64,000 nt of DNA. Source: a virus (lineage: Duplodnaviria; Caudoviricetes). The DNA lies in IMG/VR virus record IMGVR_UViG_3300016486_001578; one strand, written 5' to 3'. Each line of letters begins with the position of its first letter. The first letter of the stretch is position 1. The translations under genes and the position numbers were made by a program. A model generated the notes under the pieces. It was not told the DNA's origin, made no database searches, and saw nothing but the letters and a program-made list of their open reading frames with translations. Positions 14,416 to 30,758 of this stretch are shown here, one piece after another.

Positions 14416-14976
14416 TTGGAAAAAGAAAATAAAATCAATAAAGGGGAAAAGATAGCCAGAAAAATAAAAATAAAATCACCAATAACCATAATATTTTCAT
14501 TAATTTGTGTGGTAGCTTTTTTGTTAGGTAATCCAAATATGTTTATATTAGGATCTGGTAATGTATTTGGTGTTTTTCTTTGGATATTTGGACATAATGG
14601 TATAGAACACTTAATTGGTAATCTACTACCAATATTAATAATAGGTCCGGTATTAGAATCTAGATATAGTAAAAAAACACTAATATCATTAATAACACTA
14701 ACAACACTAACAACATCAATACTTCATTTATTTTTATTTCAAGACTCAGTAACTGGTGCTAGTGGCATATTATGTATGTTTGCAATACTAACGTTAATGG
14801 GTAAAGAAGATGGTGAGATACCACTTATGGCTGTGGTATTTACATTCTTTGTAATGGTATCACAAATATTATCAGGAGCACAGATGAATGGTATTTCCGA
14901 ATTTTCACACATAATTGGTATATTAATGGGATTTTTATTCGGATTAATAATAAAGAGAGATAAAGATTATATATAA
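14416..14976 (+). CDS. Rhomboid-family intramembrane serine protease
   Basis: H....HLIGN, GASG and SHIIG motifs; multiple TM helices. Confidence 0.85.
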   Translation: MEKENKINKGEKIARKIKIKSPITIIFSLICVVAFLLGNPNMFILGSGNVFGVFLWIFGHNGIEHLIGNLLPILIIGPVLESRYSKKTLISLITLTTLTTSILHLFLFQDSVTGASGILCMFAILTLMGKEDGEIPLMAVVFTFFVMVSQILSGAQMNGISEFSHIIGILMGFLFGLIIKRDKDYI

Positions 14977-14980
14977 TGAC

Positions 14981-15574
14981 ATGATGGATAGTTTGTTAAT
15001 AATGGTGTTTAGTGGTATAATAAATTGTACCACTTGTATAGGAATAGATATGACGGAATATAGAATGTTATATGACACATTATATCAAGTACCAGTGGTT
15101 ACAGTATACTCAATAAATGAGTCAGAAAAATTAGAAGTTGTAGAAAGAGGAAATTGGTTAGAGAGTGAGAAACACTTAGGCATAAATACACCAGACTACA
15201 ATGAACATTTCTATAAAACAGGATATGATAGAGGACATCTTGTTCCACTAGATAATATGAAATACTCTAAAGAAGCAATGAATAGAGCTTGTTTGGATAT
15301 AAATATGACAAAACAAAATGCTTCTTTTAATAGAGGTGTTTGGAGAGAGATAGAAGAAGATGTAACAGAGATAATAGATACCTCTGATTTTACAATAGTA
15401 GTCACTGGGGTGGTTTATAAGAGAGGAAATGAGCTACCACCTATACCGACACACTATTATAAAATAGTTTACTCTGGTGAGTGGATATATTGGTTATGTG
15501 AAAACAAAGCAGGACTTAGTGTTAATGGAAGTAGATGTGAATATGATGATATATTAGAACTTATAGAAAAATAA
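14981..15574 (+). CDS. DNA/RNA non-specific endonuclease
   Basis: YDRGHL, NMTKQ..SFNRGVWREIE, IPTHYYK. Confidence 0.9.
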   Translation: MMDSLLIMVFSGIINCTTCIGIDMTEYRMLYDTLYQVPVVTVYSINESEKLEVVERGNWLESEKHLGINTPDYNEHFYKTGYDRGHLVPLDNMKYSKEAMNRACLDINMTKQNASFNRGVWREIEEDVTEIIDTSDFTIVVTGVVYKRGNELPPIPTHYYKIVYSGEWIYWLCENKAGLSVNGSRCEYDDILELIEK

Positions 15575-15748
15575 AAATAGATATGAAATATTTAGAAAAT
15601 TTTAAAGAATCTGGATTAAAAAGAGTAGTGGCTTTTCAAGACGAGTTTGATAATAAATGGGGAGAATATAGAACCGGTGGTGATATAAATTTAACAGAAT
15701 TATACGCAAAAATTTGAAAAATAAGATAATTAGTATTATATTTACATA

Positions 15749-16069
15749 ATGATAAAAAATATAAGCGAGTCTCCCGAAAGATGGGTCATATTGAAATTAC
15801 CAAATAATAACTATAAAGTATTTGGAACTTGGGCTGGTGGTTATTTAGGAAGTGATAGATGGAAATTAAATTCTGGTATAAAAGAAGTTAGACAAGATGA
15901 TGATTTTTATTATTTTATAGGATTCAGTGGATCAGCTTATAAATGTCATAAAAAATCATACGGAACAGCTACTTCATATGGATTAGGAGTTTTAAATGAT
16001 ATAATAGAAAGTGGTGAAGGTAAAATTGAATTACTAGAAGATAACGATAAATGGGAATCTATTTTATAA
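15749..16069 (+). CDS. Conserved phage hypothetical protein
   Basis: WAGGYLGSDRWKLNSGI...GFSGSAYKC motif, recalled from T4-like phages. Confidence 0.65.
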   Translation: MIKNISESPERWVILKLPNNNYKVFGTWAGGYLGSDRWKLNSGIKEVRQDDDFYYFIGFSGSAYKCHKKSYGTATSYGLGVLNDIIESGEGKIELLEDNDKWESIL

Positions 16070-16084
16070 AAAAATCACAAATAA

Positions 16085-16116
16085 TTTGATATTATGAAAA
16101 CTATTTCATATATTTG
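16085..16116 (+). promoter_or_regulatory. Bacteroidota-type -33/-7 promoter of the tRNA operon
   Basis: TTTG(16085-88)-N20-TATATTTG(16109-16); also TAATATATA at 16148-16156. Confidence 0.75.
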
Positions 16117-16180
16117 TGTTATAATACAAAAAGAGAGACAAACAATTTAATATATACAACAACAATAAATTAAGAATAAA

Positions 16181-16273
16181 ATGAAAACAATGACTACAAT
16201 GACAAAAAATATGAATACGGCAATTAATGCGGTGGGCGGAAATATTCGTGTCAGAGAGTTATGTATAATTTAA
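16181..16273 (+). CDS. Putative attenuator leader peptide MKTMTTMTKNMNTAINAVGGNIRVRELCII
   Basis: 30-codon ORF between promoter and terminator; codons 1-22 use only M,K,T,N,A,I,V,G. Confidence 0.75.
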   Translation: MKTMTTMTKNMNTAINAVGGNIRVRELCII

Positions 16274-16307
16274 AAATATAAAATATAAAATTATAAAAAC
16301 CCTCTGA
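16251..16307 (+). promoter_or_regulatory. Antiterminator pairing
   Basis: TCAGAGAGTTATGTATAATT (16251-70) can pair with AATTATAAAAACCCTCTGA (16289-16307), which includes the 5' arm of the terminator. Confidence 0.7.
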
Positions 16308-16327
16308 GAAATCAGAGGGTTTTTTTT
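16295..16327 (+). terminator. Attenuator terminator upstream of the first tRNA
   Basis: AAAAACCCTCTGA-GAAA-TCAGAGGG-TTTTTTTT. Confidence 0.85.
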
Positions 16328-16339
16328 GTTTATGAATAT

Positions 16340-16413
16340 AGCGATATGGTGAAATTGGTTTATCACATGCTCCTCATAAGGGTAAATTCCGAGTTCGAGT
16401 CTCGGTATCGCTA
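16340..16413 (+). tRNA. tRNA-Met(CAT) (elongator, or Ile2)
   Basis: AGCGATA/TATCGCT acceptor; CTCATAA loop; TTCGAG T-loop. Confidence 0.85.
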
Positions 16414-16419
16414 CAAAAA

Positions 16420-16492
16420 GGGACCATAGTTTAATTGGCAAAAATAGTTGGCTTGCACCCATCAGACCCGAGTTCGACTCTCGGTGGATCCA
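16420..16492 (+). tRNA. tRNA-Ala(TGC) copy 1
   Basis: GGGACCA/TGGATCC with G3-U70; loop CTTGCAC. Confidence 0.85.
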
Positions 16493-16520
16493 CAAGAAGG
16501 AATTCTATAAATTCAAAAAC

Positions 16521-16596
16521 GGGGTGACATGTTCCAAGGCTTTGGCGAGTTTGGTTTGCAACCAGACTGTGGTGGGTTCGATACCCATTCGCTCCA
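16521..16596 (+). tRNA. tRNA-Ala(TGC) copy 2, atypical D arm
   Basis: GGGGTGA/TCGCTCC with G3-U70; loop TTTGCAA; T arm GTGGG-TTCGATA-CCCAT. Confidence 0.7.
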
Positions 16597-16626
16597 CAAA
16601 AAGAAGGAATTCTATAAATTCAATAA

Positions 16627-16700
16627 TCCTTAATAACTCAGAGGTCTAGAGTGCCGTCCTGTTAAGTCGGAAGTCCTTGGTTCGAATCCAAGTTAGGGAG
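16627..16700 (+). tRNA. tRNA-Asn(GTT) copy 1
   Basis: TCCTTAA/TTAGGGA-G; loop CTGTTAA. Confidence 0.9.
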
Positions 16701-16732
16701 CAAAAAAAGAAGGAATTCTATAAATTCAACAT

Positions 16733-16804
16733 TGGTACGAATCCGAATGGTTAGGAGGCAAGCTGTTAACTTGTTATAAGAGAGTTCGATTCTCTCCGTG
16801 CCAG
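16733..16804 (+). tRNA. tRNA-Asn(GTT) copy 2, different body
   Basis: TGGTACG/CGTGCCA-G; GCAAG-CTGTTAA-CTTGT. Confidence 0.8.
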
Positions 16805-16870
16805 CTTAAAAAAGACTAATAACATTCTTTGTTAATAGACCATTATAATTAATAATAAAAAATATTAATT

Positions 16871-17329
16871 ATGATGAAAAAAATAAAGAATACTAAAAAA
16901 GTCACTGATAAAAAAATAAAAGAAATTAAAAAATTATATGAAAAACTAAAAAGTTCTAGAAAAGTAGCCGAGAAACTAAATATTTCAAAAACAACAGTAC
17001 TAAAATATACATCAACAAAAAAGATAATAGTTGATGATGAGACAAAAAAGAAAAGAGTCAAATCTGTTATAAGTTGGAGAAAAAGGAAGAAAAGAGAATT
17101 AGTAGAATACAAAGGAGGTAAATGTGAAATATGTGATTACAATAAATCACTTAGATCTCTAGATTTTCACCACAAAAATCCAAAAGAGAAGGATTTTGGA
17201 ATATCAGGAAAATCGTATTCTTTTGATAGATTAAAAAAAGAGGTGGATAAATGTGTGCTTGTTTGTAGTAATTGTCACGGAGAAATACATGATGATATAG
17301 AGCAATTTGGTTATTCAAATAAGATATAA
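16871..17329 (+). CDS. HNH homing endonuclease with N-terminal HTH
   Basis: CEIC...DFHH...LVCSNCHGEIH. Confidence 0.85.
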   Translation: MMKKIKNTKKVTDKKIKEIKKLYEKLKSSRKVAEKLNISKTTVLKYTSTKKIIVDDETKKKRVKSVISWRKRKKRELVEYKGGKCEICDYNKSLRSLDFHHKNPKEKDFGISGKSYSFDRLKKEVDKCVLVCSNCHGEIHDDIEQFGYSNKI

Positions 17330-17343
17330 GGAGGAAATTAAAA

Positions 17344-17814
17344 ATGGAAGATTTTAAAAAAGAAAGTGGAAAAGTTATTTATGATGTAAAAGAGTATATA
17401 TTGGATATTTTAAAAAACAATAAAGATACTAAAATACACATAGGAACTGATAGCCAAAAAAGGAAAGGAAAGTGGATACACTTTGCGACAGTTATATCTT
17501 TTAGATATGGAACAAGGGGAGCACATTATATTTATGCTTTCAGAAAAGAAGTAATGTTCAAAACTGTTGTACAAAGGTTGATGAGGGAAATTGAATTAAC
17601 CGTTGATTTATACCTTTGGTTAAAAGATGTGGTAGGAATAACTGCAAATGTCTTGGAAGCAGATGTTAATGAAGACAAAAAGTGGAAAAGTAATTTAGTA
17701 TATAATGCCGCTACGGGGTGGTTGATGGGAGTATCAGCACCAGAAACAGAAGTTTTGGCTAAGCCAGATCTTTTGGTAGCGGTTCGAGCAGCGAATCATT
17801 TATGTAATAGATGA
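17344..17814 (+). CDS. Ribonuclease H-like YkuK-family protein
   Basis: HIGTDSQ...FATVI...GAHYIY...RLMRE...ADVN...S...KP...AANHL. Confidence 0.8.
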   Translation: MEDFKKESGKVIYDVKEYILDILKNNKDTKIHIGTDSQKRKGKWIHFATVISFRYGTRGAHYIYAFRKEVMFKTVVQRLMREIELTVDLYLWLKDVVGITANVLEADVNEDKKWKSNLVYNAATGWLMGVSAPETEVLAKPDLLVAVRAANHLCNR

Positions 17815-17885
17815 TAGATTGGGGTCTTCGAACTTATAGTTAGAGTCTTGCGCCAAGTAAAGCAAGAAACAAAGTAAACTAAAAA

Positions 17886-17971
17886 GCGCCTTTAGCTCAG
17901 TTGGTATCCGAGAGGTGAAGAGCATCCGCCTTTTAAGCGGAGGGTCATAGGTTCGAGTCCTATAAGGCGCA
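17886..17971 (+). tRNA. tRNA-Lys(TTT) with enlarged D loop
   Basis: GCGCCTT/AAGGCGC; TCCGC-CTTTTAA-GCGGA; D loop contains extra TATCCGAGAGGTG. Confidence 0.85.
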
Positions 17972-18001
17972 CAAAATGAAAAAGAAAGAAACATTGAGTA
18001 T

Positions 18002-18082
18002 ACTCACATACCGTCCTAACCTGATAAGTTAGAGAAACGTAATTGGTTGTTGAAAATGTCGGTTCGATTCCGTCTGTGAGTA
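18002..18082 (+). tRNA. Non-canonical tRNA-Ile(GAT)-like RNA with displaced D arm
   Basis: ACTCACA/TGTGAGT-A acceptor; CTAAC-CTGATAA-GTTAG only 7 nt after the acceptor strand; D-loop-like AATTGG 3' of the anticodon arm; T loop TTCGATT. Confidence 0.6.
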
Positions 18083-18153
18083 CAAAGTCAAAAAATTAAC
18101 CATTGTGGTGAATAAAAGGCTCATAAGTTTTAATATATAAAAATAAAAAACTT

Positions 18154-18741
18154 ATGAAAACAAGAGATAAAGTAATAGAATTAAAAAAAATAGGAAAAAG
18201 TTATGACGAAATAAAAAAAGAATTAAATATATCAAAATCGACAATTAGTTATCACTGTAAGAGATATGGCCTAGATTACATAGGACCAACGAAAAAATTA
18301 GACGAATTAACTATAAAAGAAATAAAAAAATTCTGCGAAAGTAATACAATAAAGGAAGCCTCGGAAAAATTCAAGGTCTCTATAAGCTCAATAAAAAGAT
18401 ATAAAAGAAAAAAAGAAAAAATATCTTTAACAGATATAGAGAAGAAAAATAAACAAGTAACAAGAATAAGTAATTGGAGAAGAAAAATAAAACTTAAAGC
18501 ACTCGAATATAAGGGAGGTAAGTGTGAAAAATGTGGATATAATAGGTGTGTATCATCTATGGATTTTCATCATTTAGATCCAAATGAAAAAGATTTTGGA
18601 TTAAGCGGTAGTATAAAAAGTTGGGAAATAACAAAAAAGGAATTGGATAAGTGTATTTTGGTTTGTAAAAATTGTCACGGAGAAATACATAATAAAATTG
18701 AAGAAGAAAAGAGAGAAAAAAGATTAAAAAAATATAAATAA
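18154..18741 (+). CDS. HNH homing endonuclease with HTH domains (paralog of 16871)
   Basis: YKGGKCEKC...DFHH...LVCKNCHGEIH. Confidence 0.85.
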   Translation: MKTRDKVIELKKIGKSYDEIKKELNISKSTISYHCKRYGLDYIGPTKKLDELTIKEIKKFCESNTIKEASEKFKVSISSIKRYKRKKEKISLTDIEKKNKQVTRISNWRRKIKLKALEYKGGKCEKCGYNRCVSSMDFHHLDPNEKDFGLSGSIKSWEITKKELDKCILVCKNCHGEIHNKIEEEKREKRLKKYK

Positions 18742-18743
18742 AT

Positions 18744-18816
18744 GCTGGTGAAGCTCAATAGGAAGGGCGTCTGTTTTGTAATCAGAAAGCTGTGGGTTCG
18801 ACTCCCATCACTAGCT
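18744..18816 (+). tRNA. tRNA-Thr(TGT) copy 1
   Basis: GCTGGTG/CACTAGC; loop TTTGTAA. Confidence 0.8.
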
Positions 18817-18821
18817 CAAAT

Positions 18822-18905
18822 GCTCCCGTGGTGTAATTGGTAACATCCTTCCCTTACATGGAAGAGACGAGAAGTAAAACATAGGTTCGAATCCTATCGG
18901 GAGTA
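18822..18905 (+). tRNA. tRNA-Val(TAC) copy 1 with 16-nt variable region
   Basis: GCTCCCG/CGGGAGT; CTTCC-CTTACAT-GGAAG; variable region AGACGAGAAGTAAAAC. Confidence 0.8.
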
Positions 18906-18918
18906 CAAAAATAAAAAT

Positions 18919-18992
18919 GCTAGTGTAGCTCAGTTGGTCAGAGCAGGGATCTTGTAAGTCTCAGGTCGTAGGTTCGAATCCTATCACTAGCT
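18919..18992 (+). tRNA. tRNA-Thr(TGT) copy 2
   Basis: Canonical cloverleaf; loop CTTGTAA. Confidence 0.9.
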
Positions 18993-18998
18993 CAAAAT

Positions 18999-19073
18999 GG
19001 GAGTATATCTCAGTTGGTTTAGAGCAATTGTTTTACACACAATAGGTCGGGGATTCGAATTCCTCTAGTCCTA
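18999..19073 (+). tRNA. tRNA-Val(TAC) copy 2
   Basis: ATTGT-TTTACAC-ACAAT; canonical length. Confidence 0.85.
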
Positions 19074-19084
19074 CAACACCATAA

Positions 19085-19171
19085 GCGGGTGTAGCTCAGT
19101 TGGTTATCCGAGAGGTGTAGAGCGTCAGTCTTCCAAACTGAGGGCCGTGGGTTCGAGTCCCACCATCCGCT
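19085..19171 (+). tRNA. tRNA-Gly(TCC) copy 1 with enlarged D loop
   Basis: GCGGGTG/CATCCGC-T; TCAGT-CTTCCAA-ACTGA; same TATCCGAGAGGTG insertion as tRNA-Lys. Confidence 0.85.
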
Positions 19172-19231
19172 CAAAAAATATAAGCCATAGGAGAATCTCG
19201 GATTTAATATATAATAAAATTAATGACGTAA

Positions 19232-19896
19232 ATGAAGTGGCAAAAAGGAGAAGAAATAGAATTATTAGAATTATTAAAAGAAGGTAAAAATTATATTGAA
19301 ATAGAAGAAATACTAAACAGGAGTAAGAACTCCATAAGGAATAAATCTCAAAAAATGGGATATTCCTTACAATCATTTAAGATACAAAATAAAAAGTGTA
19401 TATTTTGTAAGAAAAATTTTAATTATAATTGTAGAGACGAAAAAGAAAGGAGTAAAATATTTTGTAATAGCTCATGTTCCGCTAGTTATAATAACAAATT
19501 AAGAAATAAGAAAGGGAAAAGTGTGAGATATGTGATAAGAAAACTAATAATATAAAAACATGTAGTATGATTTGTTATCAAGAATTATTATTCTTGGAAG
19601 GGTTGGAAAAATTTAATAAGGGTTATTTAATAAATAACCGAGCAATTAAAAAATATCTAATATATTTATATGAAGAAAAGTGCTCTAATTGTGGATTAGG
19701 AAATTATTGGGATAACAAATTCTTATCAATACAGGTTGATCATATTGATGGTAATTCCGATAATAACTCAAAAGATAATGTTAGGCTATTATGTCCAAAT
19801 TGCCATTCACAAACACCAACATTTGGTATAAAGGGAGGAAACAAAAACAAAAAAGATAATAGAAATATATATCGAAAAAAATATAGACAAAAATGA
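19232..19896 (+). CDS. HNH endonuclease (split into two ORFs by frameshift)
   Basis: N-terminal HTH and FCNSSC; C-terminal CSNC...VDHIDGNSDNN...LCPNCHSQT. Confidence 0.75.
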
Positions 19897-20201
19897 TTAA
19901 ATGGATAAAAAAATATTTAATTCCGAAGAAAAAAGAAGAATACATTCCCTATGGAATGTGTCCAGGATTTTATATTAAGGTAAATGATAGTTCTTGGATA
20001 CAAGGACATATGGTTATTAAAAAATCAGACAACGAAGCCGAGATAAGAAAGAAATTTAATGATTTGATAGTTAAATTTTGCAAAGAAAGAAACCTAAGCA
20101 AAGAAGAGACAGAAAAAAATCTAAAAAATAATAACCTAGATTCATATTTTGGAGCCGATGATATACCGGATTGGTATATCCCACCCAAGGCGAAGGGGTA
20201 A
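19893..20201 (+). CDS. Hypothetical protein
   Basis: ORF overlapping the HNH stop. Confidence 0.45.
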   Translation: MIKWIKKYLIPKKKEEYIPYGMCPGFYIKVNDSSWIQGHMVIKKSDNEAEIRKKFNDLIVKFCKERNLSKEETEKNLKNNNLDSYFGADDIPDWYIPPKAKG

Positions 20202-20209
20202 TTAATAAT

Positions 20210-20283
20210 GCGGATGTAGCTCAGTTGGTCAGAGCGTTAGTTTTCCAAACTAAGAGTCGTGAGTTCGATTCTCTCTACTCGCT
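20210..20283 (+). tRNA. tRNA-Gly(TCC) copy 2
   Basis: TTAGT-TTTCCAA-ACTAA; normal D loop; one acceptor-stem mismatch. Confidence 0.8.
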
Positions 20284-20288
20284 CTTAT

Positions 20289-20377
20289 GTAGTATATTCT
20301 CAGTTGGTACAGAGATAAAAAACAGGCAGAAAAATTATTGAAGTTTTGTCATAGTTTGGTTCGATTCCAAAATCTAC
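20289..20377 (+). ncRNA. tRNA-like element without a recognisable anticodon arm
   Basis: D arm TCTC-AGTTGGTACA-GAGA and T arm TTTGG-TTCGATT-CCAAA; ends GTAG.../...CTAC. Confidence 0.45.
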
Positions 20378-20400
20378 TTTAATTTATTAATACATACATT

Positions 20401-20838
20401 ATGAATTATATTAAATTATTTGAAAACTTCGATAACATAGAATATTTTGATATGGAAGATATATTTCTAACCATAATAGATAAGGGGTTGATAATTGAAG
20501 ATGCTATGGTATGTAACATAATAGATATTGGTGATAATGATGTAGTATTTGGTAATAGTAATACCGAATCTACTAGTGGGTTATTGTTGGAGTTTTCTAC
20601 TGAGACTGGTTTATATTTTAATAGTGAGTTTTATAATGAATTAGACTTAGCCATTAAACATGCGGAAAGTAGGTATGATATTAAATTAAATAATATACAC
20701 ATAGATAGCTCTAGATTTGAATTGGTTCATGATGAGGATAAATTTAATATATATTGCTCAACGGTACATAAAATGAAAGAGATGTATTCTACCAGATTTG
20801 ATAAAAAATGTTGTATGGGTTTATCGTTCAAAAAATAA
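20401..20838 (+). CDS. Hypothetical protein with MNYIKLFENF tag
   Basis: ORF; tag. Confidence 0.55.
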   Translation: MNYIKLFENFDNIEYFDMEDIFLTIIDKGLIIEDAMVCNIIDIGDNDVVFGNSNTESTSGLLLEFSTETGLYFNSEFYNELDLAIKHAESRYDIKLNNIHIDSSRFELVHDEDKFNIYCSTVHKMKEMYSTRFDKKCCMGLSFKK

Positions 20839-21480
20839 TTATACCTTTCTCCATTTAAAGAAAATGTCTTTATCTTCTTGGTTCTCAACATATCCCTCTT
20901 CTTTATATTGTTCATCATTTATAATAACCAAATAAGAATAACCAGTATGAAAAGATTCTAATCCTGGATAATCACTATTTTCTGGAAAATATAATTTGTT
21001 AAAAAAGGTAGATTGATCATCTGATATATTAATGCCTAACTCTTCTTGCATTCCTCTTTTTATTGCCTCTTTGTGATCTTCTCCATATTTAAACTTTTCC
21101 GCCATTGAATACCAGATATCAGACCTTATCCTTTCCCTACCACCTTTAAATATGGCCTTTTCTTCAAATAAAATAAACTTATCATTGCCATTTATATACA
21201 TAATCCTAGCCCCAACAAAATTAACTTCCCTTCTTAGTTTTCCATTAATTGAATATAATTCGGTTTCTTCCTCTTTGATTTCATTCCAAAGGTGGTTGAT
21301 TTTTTTATATTTCTTCTTACCCCAATCAGAAAGATCTATTTTATGACTCTTTAATAAATTATCCAATCCTTCTCTTGATTTAGGAGTTACGATATATTTA
21401 TCATCTAGTGGTTCTTTTTTGCTTATTATATTATTATACTCATTTATTATATAACTTTCAAATTTTTTTATATTATCCAT
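20839..21480 (-). CDS. NUDIX-like protein with N-terminal tag
   Basis: E....AIKRGMQEELGI degenerate Nudix box; MDNIKKFESY. Confidence 0.5.
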   Translation of the reverse strand: MDNIKKFESYIINEYNNIISKKEPLDDKYIVTPKSREGLDNLLKSHKIDLSDWGKKKYKKINHLWNEIKEEETELYSINGKLRREVNFVGARIMYINGNDKFILFEEKAIFKGGRERIRSDIWYSMAEKFKYGEDHKEAIKRGMQEELGINISDDQSTFFNKLYFPENSDYPGLESFHTGYSYLVIINDEQYKEEGYVENQEDKDIFFKWRKV

Positions 21481-21546
21481 TTATTATATATTAATATGGA
21501 AAATTATTTTTAATAATTTAATATATAAAGAAAATAAAAACCAACA

Positions 21547-25996: not shown

Positions 25997-26422
25997 TTGA
26001 AAATAGGAAAAAACGACATAAGAATAGGAAACCTTTTAAGAACAAAGGATGGGGAAGAAATTAGAGTTGAGAGTATAAACAACGATGGTATTAACCTAAA
26101 AATAACTAGTATAATAAATCCATCTAATAGAAAATTAAGCGGATTGGTCTCTATACCAAAGTATAAATTTGATGATTTATGTGGAATAGATATAACAAAA
26201 GATCATTTAGTTGATTATGGGTTTATCCATCGAGAGTGTGGAATATCCGGTGCTGATATGTGGCAAGGAATGGACTTTTGGACACTACTAAATACATCAT
26301 TCTCATTAAGAGGAAATCCAGGTGGTTTAAAATTAACCGGTCACATAAATAGTGAGATATTATATCTACATCAATTACAAAACTCTTATCATTCAACACA
26401 AAACAAAGAATTAAGTGATTAA
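25997..26422 (+). CDS. Hypothetical phage protein
   Basis: DIRIGN...YLHQLQN motif. Confidence 0.55.
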   Translation: MKIGKNDIRIGNLLRTKDGEEIRVESINNDGINLKITSIINPSNRKLSGLVSIPKYKFDDLCGIDITKDHLVDYGFIHRECGISGADMWQGMDFWTLLNTSFSLRGNPGGLKLTGHINSEILYLHQLQNSYHSTQNKELSD

Positions 26423-26460
26423 TTTCTATTAATATATAGATTATAAATTTAATTTAAAAA

Positions 26461-30720: not shown

Positions 30721-30758
30721 ATTTTTAGGTATTATTGTAATTTAATATATAAAATACA

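Follow-up and report, generated by a model that had tools for sequence, protein, structure and literature searches.

What governs the expression of the tRNA genes that phages carry? The role of these genes has been debated for decades, the proposals being codon compensation, replacement of degraded host tRNAs and escape from anticodon nucleases; to our knowledge, nothing is known about how their expression levels are controlled. The question is posed by positions 16085-20377 of a 64,000-nucleotide stretch of DNA (hereafter the window, meaning the whole of this stretch) from the IMG/VR virus record IMGVR_UViG_3300016486_001578 (Duplodnaviria; Caudoviricetes), in which a promoter, a short open reading frame (ORF) and an intrinsic terminator precede an array of tRNA genes. 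An initial annotation had read this order of elements as control of the array by attenuation of the trp/thr/ilv type. The comparison with related giant phages reported here supports that view, and the cassette is in all likelihood, as judged from sequence, a ribosome-mediated (leader-peptide) transcription attenuator gating a phage tRNA operon. Window features lie on the plus strand; sites on the opposite strand are marked (-).

The leader cassette and its alternative RNA structures

The leader ORF (16181-16273) lies between the promoter and the regulated genes and comprises 30 codons, from the ATG at 16181 to the TAA at 16271-16273; both its start and its stop are where the initial annotation had placed them, and it is predicted to be translated. 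Codons 1-22 have exactly the make-up claimed for them (M4, T5, N4, K2, A2, I2, G2 and V1), and all 21 residues of the putative sensor, codons 2-22 (16184-16246), belong to the set M/T/N/K/A/I/G/V. These eight residues account for 47% of those in the 51 long ORFs of the window, where none of 12,954 segments of 21 residues falls entirely within the set; among the 278 ATG-initiated ORFs of at least 25 codons in the window, the run of in-set residues after the start reaches 21 in the leader and at most 11 in the others. The leader is thereby enriched in codons cognate to the supply of its own operon, since the corrected array consists of a CAU tRNA, Ala (two), Asn (two), Lys, an Ile-like gene, Thr (two), Val (two) and Gly (two), whose anticodons read 20 of the 22 codons under strict wobble, the start ATG included. 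The claim that the array serves the same eight amino acids, none missing and none extra, held after cloverleaf checks. ARAGORN and Rfam had initially returned 11 tRNA genes, and this list taken at face value (two Leu, no Lys, one Gly, one Ala) was rejected after the same checks: if a normal variable loop is assumed and positions are counted backwards from the 3' end, the two 'Leu' genes have perfect anticodon stems with the anticodons UUU (17886-17972) and UCC (19085-19172). The Leu calls are artefacts; the extra 13-14 nt lie in the D loop.

Between the leader and the first regulated gene lies an intrinsic terminator (16295-16327) made of a 13-bp stem with five G-C pairs (16295-16324), a GAAA loop and eight T, with a hairpin energy of -18.6 to -20.6 kcal/mol (z -6.4). 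It corresponds to the strong terminator announced 12 nt before the first tRNA gene, which starts at 16340. When the 3' arm of the terminator is left out, the region 16245-16311 folds into a helix between 16249-16271 and 16288-16309 (-11.9 kcal/mol, z -4.9), and none of 200 shuffles folds as well. This fold bears out the complementarity previously noted between 16251-16270 and 16289-16307, and the antiterminator therefore shares a strand with the terminator: segment 2 (16249-16271), the 5' strand of the antiterminator, occupies codons 23-30, its end lying at the stop codon, and segment 3 (16288-16309) is common to both structures, the 5' arm of the terminator being 16295-16307. Since segment 2 runs from codon 23 to the stop codon, the latter is placed such that a terminating ribosome would cover the antiterminator strand and a ribosome stalled earlier would not. 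The full-length minimum free energy fold adds a helix between segment 1 (16190-16204), which would pair with segment 2 when the leader is untranslated, and 16249-16262 (duplex -8.6 kcal/mol, z -2.5 in the window).

The Rfam search of 15500-21500 returned no T-box match at E<=1; the Phe_leader model (RF01859) reached 25.9 bits (E 0.45) on the terminator only (16277-16328), with a gathering threshold of 55 bits, and the Rfam small RNA matches at the terminator were likewise below threshold. The exact 30-nt hairpin of the terminator also ends unrelated genes in other viral contigs (L001 1451-1480; L002 9562-9591; L003 8959-8988 (-)), among them an HU-like gene of the relative G001, and a search of IMG/VR for this hairpin gave matches in unrelated contexts only.

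Upstream of the leader, the host-type promoter claimed at 16085-16116 is indeed an exact match to the pattern TTTG-N20-TAnnTTTG of Bacteroidota sigma-A promoters, and in the alignment it keeps the same distance to the leader in the promoter-bearing cassettes of the relatives. The promoter is called because the element is conserved across cassettes, the two matches to the pattern in the window against 0.66 expected not being significant alone. A scan of the window for sigma-70 promoters was discarded, its 50 matches against 48.5 expected being at chance level. Promoter-bearing cassettes have in common the TTTG / TAnnTTTG promoter, an AGAGA element and TTTAATATATA a few bases 5' of the ATG. In the window the AGAGA...TTTAATATATA element, kept across cassettes, is matched without mismatch at 16132-16156 and is probably a phage promoter or an initiation context. 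Its TAATATATA part is also found 5-25 nt 5' of several start codons in the window (18115-18139, 21485-21509 (-), 26414-26438 and 30727-30751), a longer TAATATATA pattern having 11 matches there against 3.2 expected, and this motif is probably a phage promoter yielding very short 5' leaders.

Leaders and tRNA arrays in related giant phages

Relatives were found through the tail sheath, for which many IMG/VR contigs showed 54-68% identity, and eight records were scanned for tRNAs. As a cassette we counted a terminator preceded by an ATG-initiated ORF of 15-50 codons ending no more than 110 nt before it and followed by a tRNA within 260 nt. Where several ORFs qualified for one terminator the longest was taken, with two Q-class exceptions, in which the chosen ORF was the one not starting within a tRNA gene or the one homologous to the other Q leader; cloverleaf matches scoring below 16, plus a few within coding DNA, were excluded. 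This rule yielded 32 cassettes in nine genomes (the window and eight related contigs), to which two more in GenBank genomes are added. The leader, whose conservation as an ORF the initial annotation had proposed as a check, is open and intact in all 32 cassettes and in both GenBank genomes, and its insertions and deletions preserve the frame (multiples of three). A cassette precedes 27 of 29 and 37 of 41 of the tRNAs scored by Rfam in the two records whose completeness is rated at 95%.

The composition of the leaders changes with the tRNAs behind the terminator. Cores of the YYYEE type precede Tyr and Glu tRNAs, a QQQQQ core precedes two Gln tRNAs, SSSSRSS precedes Arg-ACG and Ser, and cores of the NPQPQDQD type precede Gln, Asp and Pro; H/K/F/W-rich leaders are followed by Phe, His, Lys and Trp tRNAs, I/A/G-rich leaders by Ile-UAU, Ala and Gly, and N/L/T/V/I/C/R-rich leaders by tRNAs for those amino acids. 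Arrays headed by an initiator-like CAU tRNA have no leader, which fits a sensor based on stalled elongation, as such a device could not sense initiator tRNA. These initiator-like genes have a 1:72 mismatch (L095 908-1003; L092 7437-7510 (-); L098 8615-8687 (-)), and the one of the relative G002 carries an insert of about 23 nt in its anticodon loop.

This correspondence is quantitative. A fraction of 0.43 of the leader codons specifies an amino acid served by the leader's own array, against 0.155 when the other arrays of the same genome are considered; when arrays are permuted among leaders within genomes (z 7.2), none of 200,000 permutations reaches the observed sum, and the true pairing is the best of all permutations in eight out of eight genomes (1 of 5,040 in G002; 1 of 120 in G001). 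The result is unchanged at the codon level. Leader composition thus tracks the anticodon set of the array in the relatives, a test that the initial annotation had put forward. For each of the 20 amino acids, usage is higher in leaders with a cognate tRNA in their array than in leaders without one, with ratios from 1.1 to 20 (Gln 20-fold, His 15-fold, Trp 7.5-fold), and the signal is confined to the frame of the leader, no enrichment trend being seen when the same DNA is read in frames +1 and +2. For residues with several codons, the match at the codon level is 82% against 66% expected.

The window itself illustrates how leader and array change together. The 3' part of its leader aligns with the N class, and by comparison with the N-class homologues codons for Leu, Arg and Cys have disappeared from its sensor and codons for Lys, Ala and Gly have been added, which is the exact difference in tRNA content between the window array and the N-class arrays. 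The nearest public genomes by tail sheath are LR745206.1 (634 kb; 65% identical) and LR756502.1 (642 kb; 59%), whose GenBank records bear no annotation; both contain an N-class cassette, 5' of Asn/Arg/Leu/Val/Ile/Thr arrays. They come from the work of Al-Shayeb et al. 2020 (PMC7162821), in which the Mahaphage clade holds all genomes larger than 634 kb and has Bacteroidetes as predicted hosts.

The antiterminator could also be followed across the cassettes. The segment that pairs best with the 5' arm of the terminator is in every case located in the final third of the ORF, 0-32 nt 5' of the stop codon; pairing with the leader's own arm has a mean z of -2.5 against shuffles, at p<=0.05 in 15 of the 32 cassettes, and leaders pair better with their arm than do leaders of other classes (Wilcoxon p 8e-5). 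Support is strong in the N, FHKW and IAG classes and in the window. In an alignment of the window with six N-class cassettes (A1), pairing is kept in 95% of cells for the antiterminator and in 100% for the terminator. The relative G007 has an altered terminator core and a leader segment altered with it, three antiterminator and four terminator pairs being changed on both sides; covariation of the antiterminator, another of the checks suggested at the outset, is therefore seen together with that of the terminator, counting as one event because it occurs in one lineage. A general role for the helix between segments 1 and 2 was rejected, its mean z across cassettes being -0.5, and the conserved design, as predicted from these comparisons, is one of three segments plus occlusion by the ribosome.

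Proposed operation of the switch and competing explanations

The attenuator would operate as follows. A transcript would start at the host-type Bacteroidota promoter, and a ribosome would translate the 30-codon leader as the RNA polymerase proceeds. If codons 2-22 are decoded fast, the ribosome would come to cover segment 2 (16249-16271), leaving segment 3 to pair with segment 4, so that the terminator forms and transcription ends at about 16327. If any cognate tRNA is scarce, the ribosome would stall in the sensor, free segment 2 would pair with segment 3 and the antiterminator thus formed would let the polymerase continue into the tRNA genes. We infer translation of the leader, stalling and regulated read-through, as well as a natural cause of tRNA depletion, for which the codon demand of the phage, decay of host tRNAs and anticodon nucleases are candidates; the trigger put forward in the initial annotation, anticodon-nuclease defence or starvation, is likewise a candidate. 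As the phage tRNAs would relieve the stall, the circuit would amount to a negative-feedback supply sensor for decoding capacity.

Several observations weigh against this interpretation. Two sensor codons of the window, ACT and GGC, require extended wobble, and an N-terminal prefix (M, then K/R/T, then T/N...) is common to all leaders whatever their array, so that the K/T/M match in codons 2-6 of the window may be partly generic; codons 7-22 taken alone are still wholly within the eight-residue set. The helix between segments 1 and 2 is not conserved, and support for the antiterminator is weak in the QDP and Q classes and in some YE and SR cassettes. Because many of them are homologous, the cassettes do not count as independent observations; there are about eight independent units, the leader classes, and the cleanest figure is therefore that of the single genome with seven cassettes, in which the true pairing ranks 1 of 5,040. 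Metagenome scans gave no close relative of the window's exact cassette. Within the array, two genes, the second Ala gene and the Ile-like one, depart from the canonical tRNA form and may have no activity, and the distal tRNAs (Lys, Ile, Thr, Val and Gly) sit 3' of blocks of 0.6-1.1 kb of homing-endonuclease-type ORFs; because at least one of these blocks has a promoter-like motif of its own (18115-18139), the distal tRNAs may not depend on the attenuator alone.

The same attenuator might instead sense amino-acid starvation through uncharged tRNA, as trp and his do, so that the phage would react to the nutrition of its host. Stalling cannot distinguish a missing tRNA from an uncharged one, and the geometry of the cassette is that of the classical starvation sensors. 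Extra tRNA, however, does not relieve amino-acid starvation, and the output of the switch would therefore misfit its signal; moreover, each class of leaders matches the tRNA genes that follow it, and part of this match extends to the anticodons, as is predicted for a sensor of tRNA supply. We regard starvation sensing as unlikely.

It is quite improbable that the translated leader controls the processing or stability of the tRNA precursor, e.g. through the access of an RNase, with the hairpin serving as a constitutive leaky terminator or as a protector of the 3' end. Some cassettes do lie directly 3' of a tRNA within longer transcripts, and the weak antiterminators of some classes would be at home in such a scheme, but every cassette has a canonical U-tailed terminator, and in the N, FHKW, IAG and window cassettes a segment within the ORF matches the 5' arm of the terminator and covaries with it. 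That the short ORFs encode functional small peptides, with a composition unrelated to regulation, would account for their conservation as ORFs; what is conserved, however, is composition and not sequence, this composition changes from class to class along with the array, and the 3' parts of the leaders follow the needs of RNA pairing, all of which makes a peptide function scarcely credible. A chance ORF in A-rich DNA before an ordinary terminator of upstream transcription, to which the identical hairpins at the ends of unrelated genes and the chance-level number of sigma-70-type promoter matches would lend themselves, is already contradicted by the composition of the leader, unique in the window, by the frame-preserving indels of the conserved ORF, by the first rank of the true pairing in all genomes and by the frame specificity of the signal, and can be given hardly any credence.

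If the cassettes are attenuators of tRNA supply, it is tempting to extend the argument from the single locus to the lineage. We think it rather probable that these phages run a modular homeostat of decoding capacity, in which about eight leaders jointly sample the 20 amino acids, each gates the tRNAs for its own codons, and leaders are rewritten as tRNA genes move between arrays; as part of the same reading, the M/T/N/K/A/I/V/G unit of the window would probably be a hybrid example of such rewriting. If true, no earlier case would be known in which the speed of ribosomes on cognate codons feeds back on the transcription of tRNA genes, and the homeostat could act as an automatic counter to host defences that cleave tRNAs.

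The array, its surroundings and comparison with known systems

The array opens with an elongator-type tRNA with a CAU anticodon (16340-16414; 1:72 paired), followed by a tRNA-Ala UGC (16420-16493; G3:U70) and a second tRNA-Ala UGC (about 16521-16597) with an unusual D region and the same G3:U70 pair, which was missed by ARAGORN and Rfam and has 17 of 17 stem pairs in the cloverleaf scan; its homologue in a relative (L098) is called Ala by ARAGORN. Two bodies of tRNA-Asn GUU (16627-16701 and 16733-16805) come next, and then two ORFs assigned by Pfam (16871-17814), an HTH-HNH endonuclease (16871-17329) and an RNase H-like protein (17344-17814). The tRNA-Lys UUU gene (17886-17972), one of those miscalled Leu by ARAGORN, has the 13-14-nt D-loop insertion mentioned above; the Rfam alignment of 17886-17971 (60.2 bits) places 14 inserted nt in the D loop and shows the anticodon loop CUUUUAA. 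The Ile-GAU-like gene (18002-18083) has a rearranged D region, with only 7 nt where the D arm belongs; its acceptor, T and anticodon arms all pair in our own cloverleaf scan, Rfam does not score it, and its homologues in relatives score 30-37 bits. Beyond an HTH-domain ORF (18154-18741) with its own TAATATATA motif at 18115-18139 lie tRNA-Thr UGU (18744-18817), tRNA-Val UAC with a 16-nt variable region (18822-18906), second bodies of Thr UGU (18919-18993) and Val UAC (18999-19074), and a tRNA-Gly UCC (19085-19172; Rfam 64 bits), which shares the D-loop insertion of the Lys gene and was likewise miscalled Leu by ARAGORN. Three small ORFs (19232-20201), one of them an HNH endonuclease (19567-19896), separate it from the last tRNA-Gly UCC (20210-20284), and a degenerate tRNA-like remnant (20290-20377), recognised by eye from its D and T arms, has no clear anticodon arm and passed no model. 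The array is thus interrupted by ORFs of the HNH/HTH homing-endonuclease type and by the RNase H-like one.

The tRNA genes of this lineage are unusual in other respects. Insertions of 12-19 nt in the D loop, resembling small hairpins with a GNRA tetraloop, occur in otherwise normal Lys, Gly, Cys, Pro and His tRNAs, which ARAGORN miscalls as Leu or Ser (the two window genes; L095 3552-3633 and 9252-9333; L096 1171-1256; L094 9317-9406); a search of IMG/VR for the D-loop-insert pattern gave no match. The Ile-GAU-like gene of the window is a member of a rearranged family of tRNA-like genes (Ile-GAU, Ile-UAU and Arg-UCU), in which about 7 nt replace the D arm and the anticodon arm is followed by a stretch of 21-26 nt (L095 8666-8743; L099 2304-2379; L118 2587-2666 and 10337-10417; L125 1046-1123). 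Anticodons are often present twice per array, once in a normal body and once in a body with a variable arm of 12-20 nt (18822-18906 in the window; also in L092, L094, L095, L099 and L118), the long-armed copies concerning amino acids whose tRNAs normally have a short variable loop, namely Val, Lys, Glu, Asn, Thr, Ile and Gln. G002 has a lone tRNA with the anticodon CUA, an amber suppressor, far from its arrays (L097 1133-1205). A short motif, AAGAGTTACTTCG, absent from the window, is found inside or beside odd over-long tRNA-like genes of relatives (L092 12829-12841 (-); L094 10179-10191; L095 9668-9680; also L117, L126 and L131).

The phage DNA around the region has a G+C content of 26-32%, and a tail sheath, a family-B DNA polymerase and homing endonucleases are among the products encoded in the window; comparison with INPHARED at the DNA level revealed no close relative of the region. 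The gene directly 5' of the cassette (15749-16069) stops at 16069 and encodes a 106-amino-acid protein with 75-77% identical homologues in unrelated viral contigs of higher G+C content without a tRNA array (L004-L011); it appears from this distribution to move between phages, and its homologues were dropped as a source of related cassettes. Just 5' of the cassette there are also genes for a rhomboid-domain protein (14416-14976) and a non-specific DNA/RNA endonuclease (14981-15574).

An attenuator written in the codons of its own array would let a phage measure the decoding speed of each codon set and top up only the shortfall, and would carry leader-peptide attenuation beyond amino-acid metabolism into the tRNA pool. 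Each leader would then predict which tRNAs are co-regulated and which depletion opens the switch, and the cassettes, as small natural devices that sense how fast particular codons are translated, could find a second use as reporters. They sit unannotated in the largest published phage genomes, the Mahaphage genomes LR745206.1 and LR756502.1 having the same type of cassette as the window. The paper describing these genomes counts tRNAs, the words attenuat-, leader and terminator being absent from its text (Al-Shayeb et al. 2020, PMC7162821), and our full-text searches of the literature turned up no report of phage tRNA genes controlled by attenuation.

In its anatomy the cassette resembles the enterobacterial leaders trpL, hisL, leuL and pheL, which likewise have a promoter, a short ORF rich in the relevant codons, mutually exclusive antiterminator and terminator, and a U-tailed hairpin before the first gene; the helix energies of the trp leader are also similar in size to those found here. 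Unlike these systems, the cassette is viral, has a promoter of the Bacteroidota type and does not conserve the helix between segments 1 and 2; its targets are tRNAs rather than enzymes, and the quantity sensed is probably tRNA supply. Sampling of several amino acids by one leader is known from ilvGMEDA (Ile/Leu/Val) and thr (Thr/Ile), whereas eight are sampled in the window and the roughly eight leader classes of its relatives jointly cover all 20. In the pheM leader of Escherichia coli pheST, encoding Phe-tRNA synthetase, a gene of the translation apparatus is similarly controlled by a leader of its own cognate codons, although only one amino acid is involved, the regulated product is a protein and the genome is cellular. 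T-box riboswitches, too, respond to the status of tRNA and alternate between a terminator and an antiterminator before genes of translation, but they bind tRNA directly and have no ORF, whereas the cassette has no T-box match and its signal is specific to the reading frame. The mechanism is therefore of a known kind, while its target, the tRNA genes, and its logic are new.

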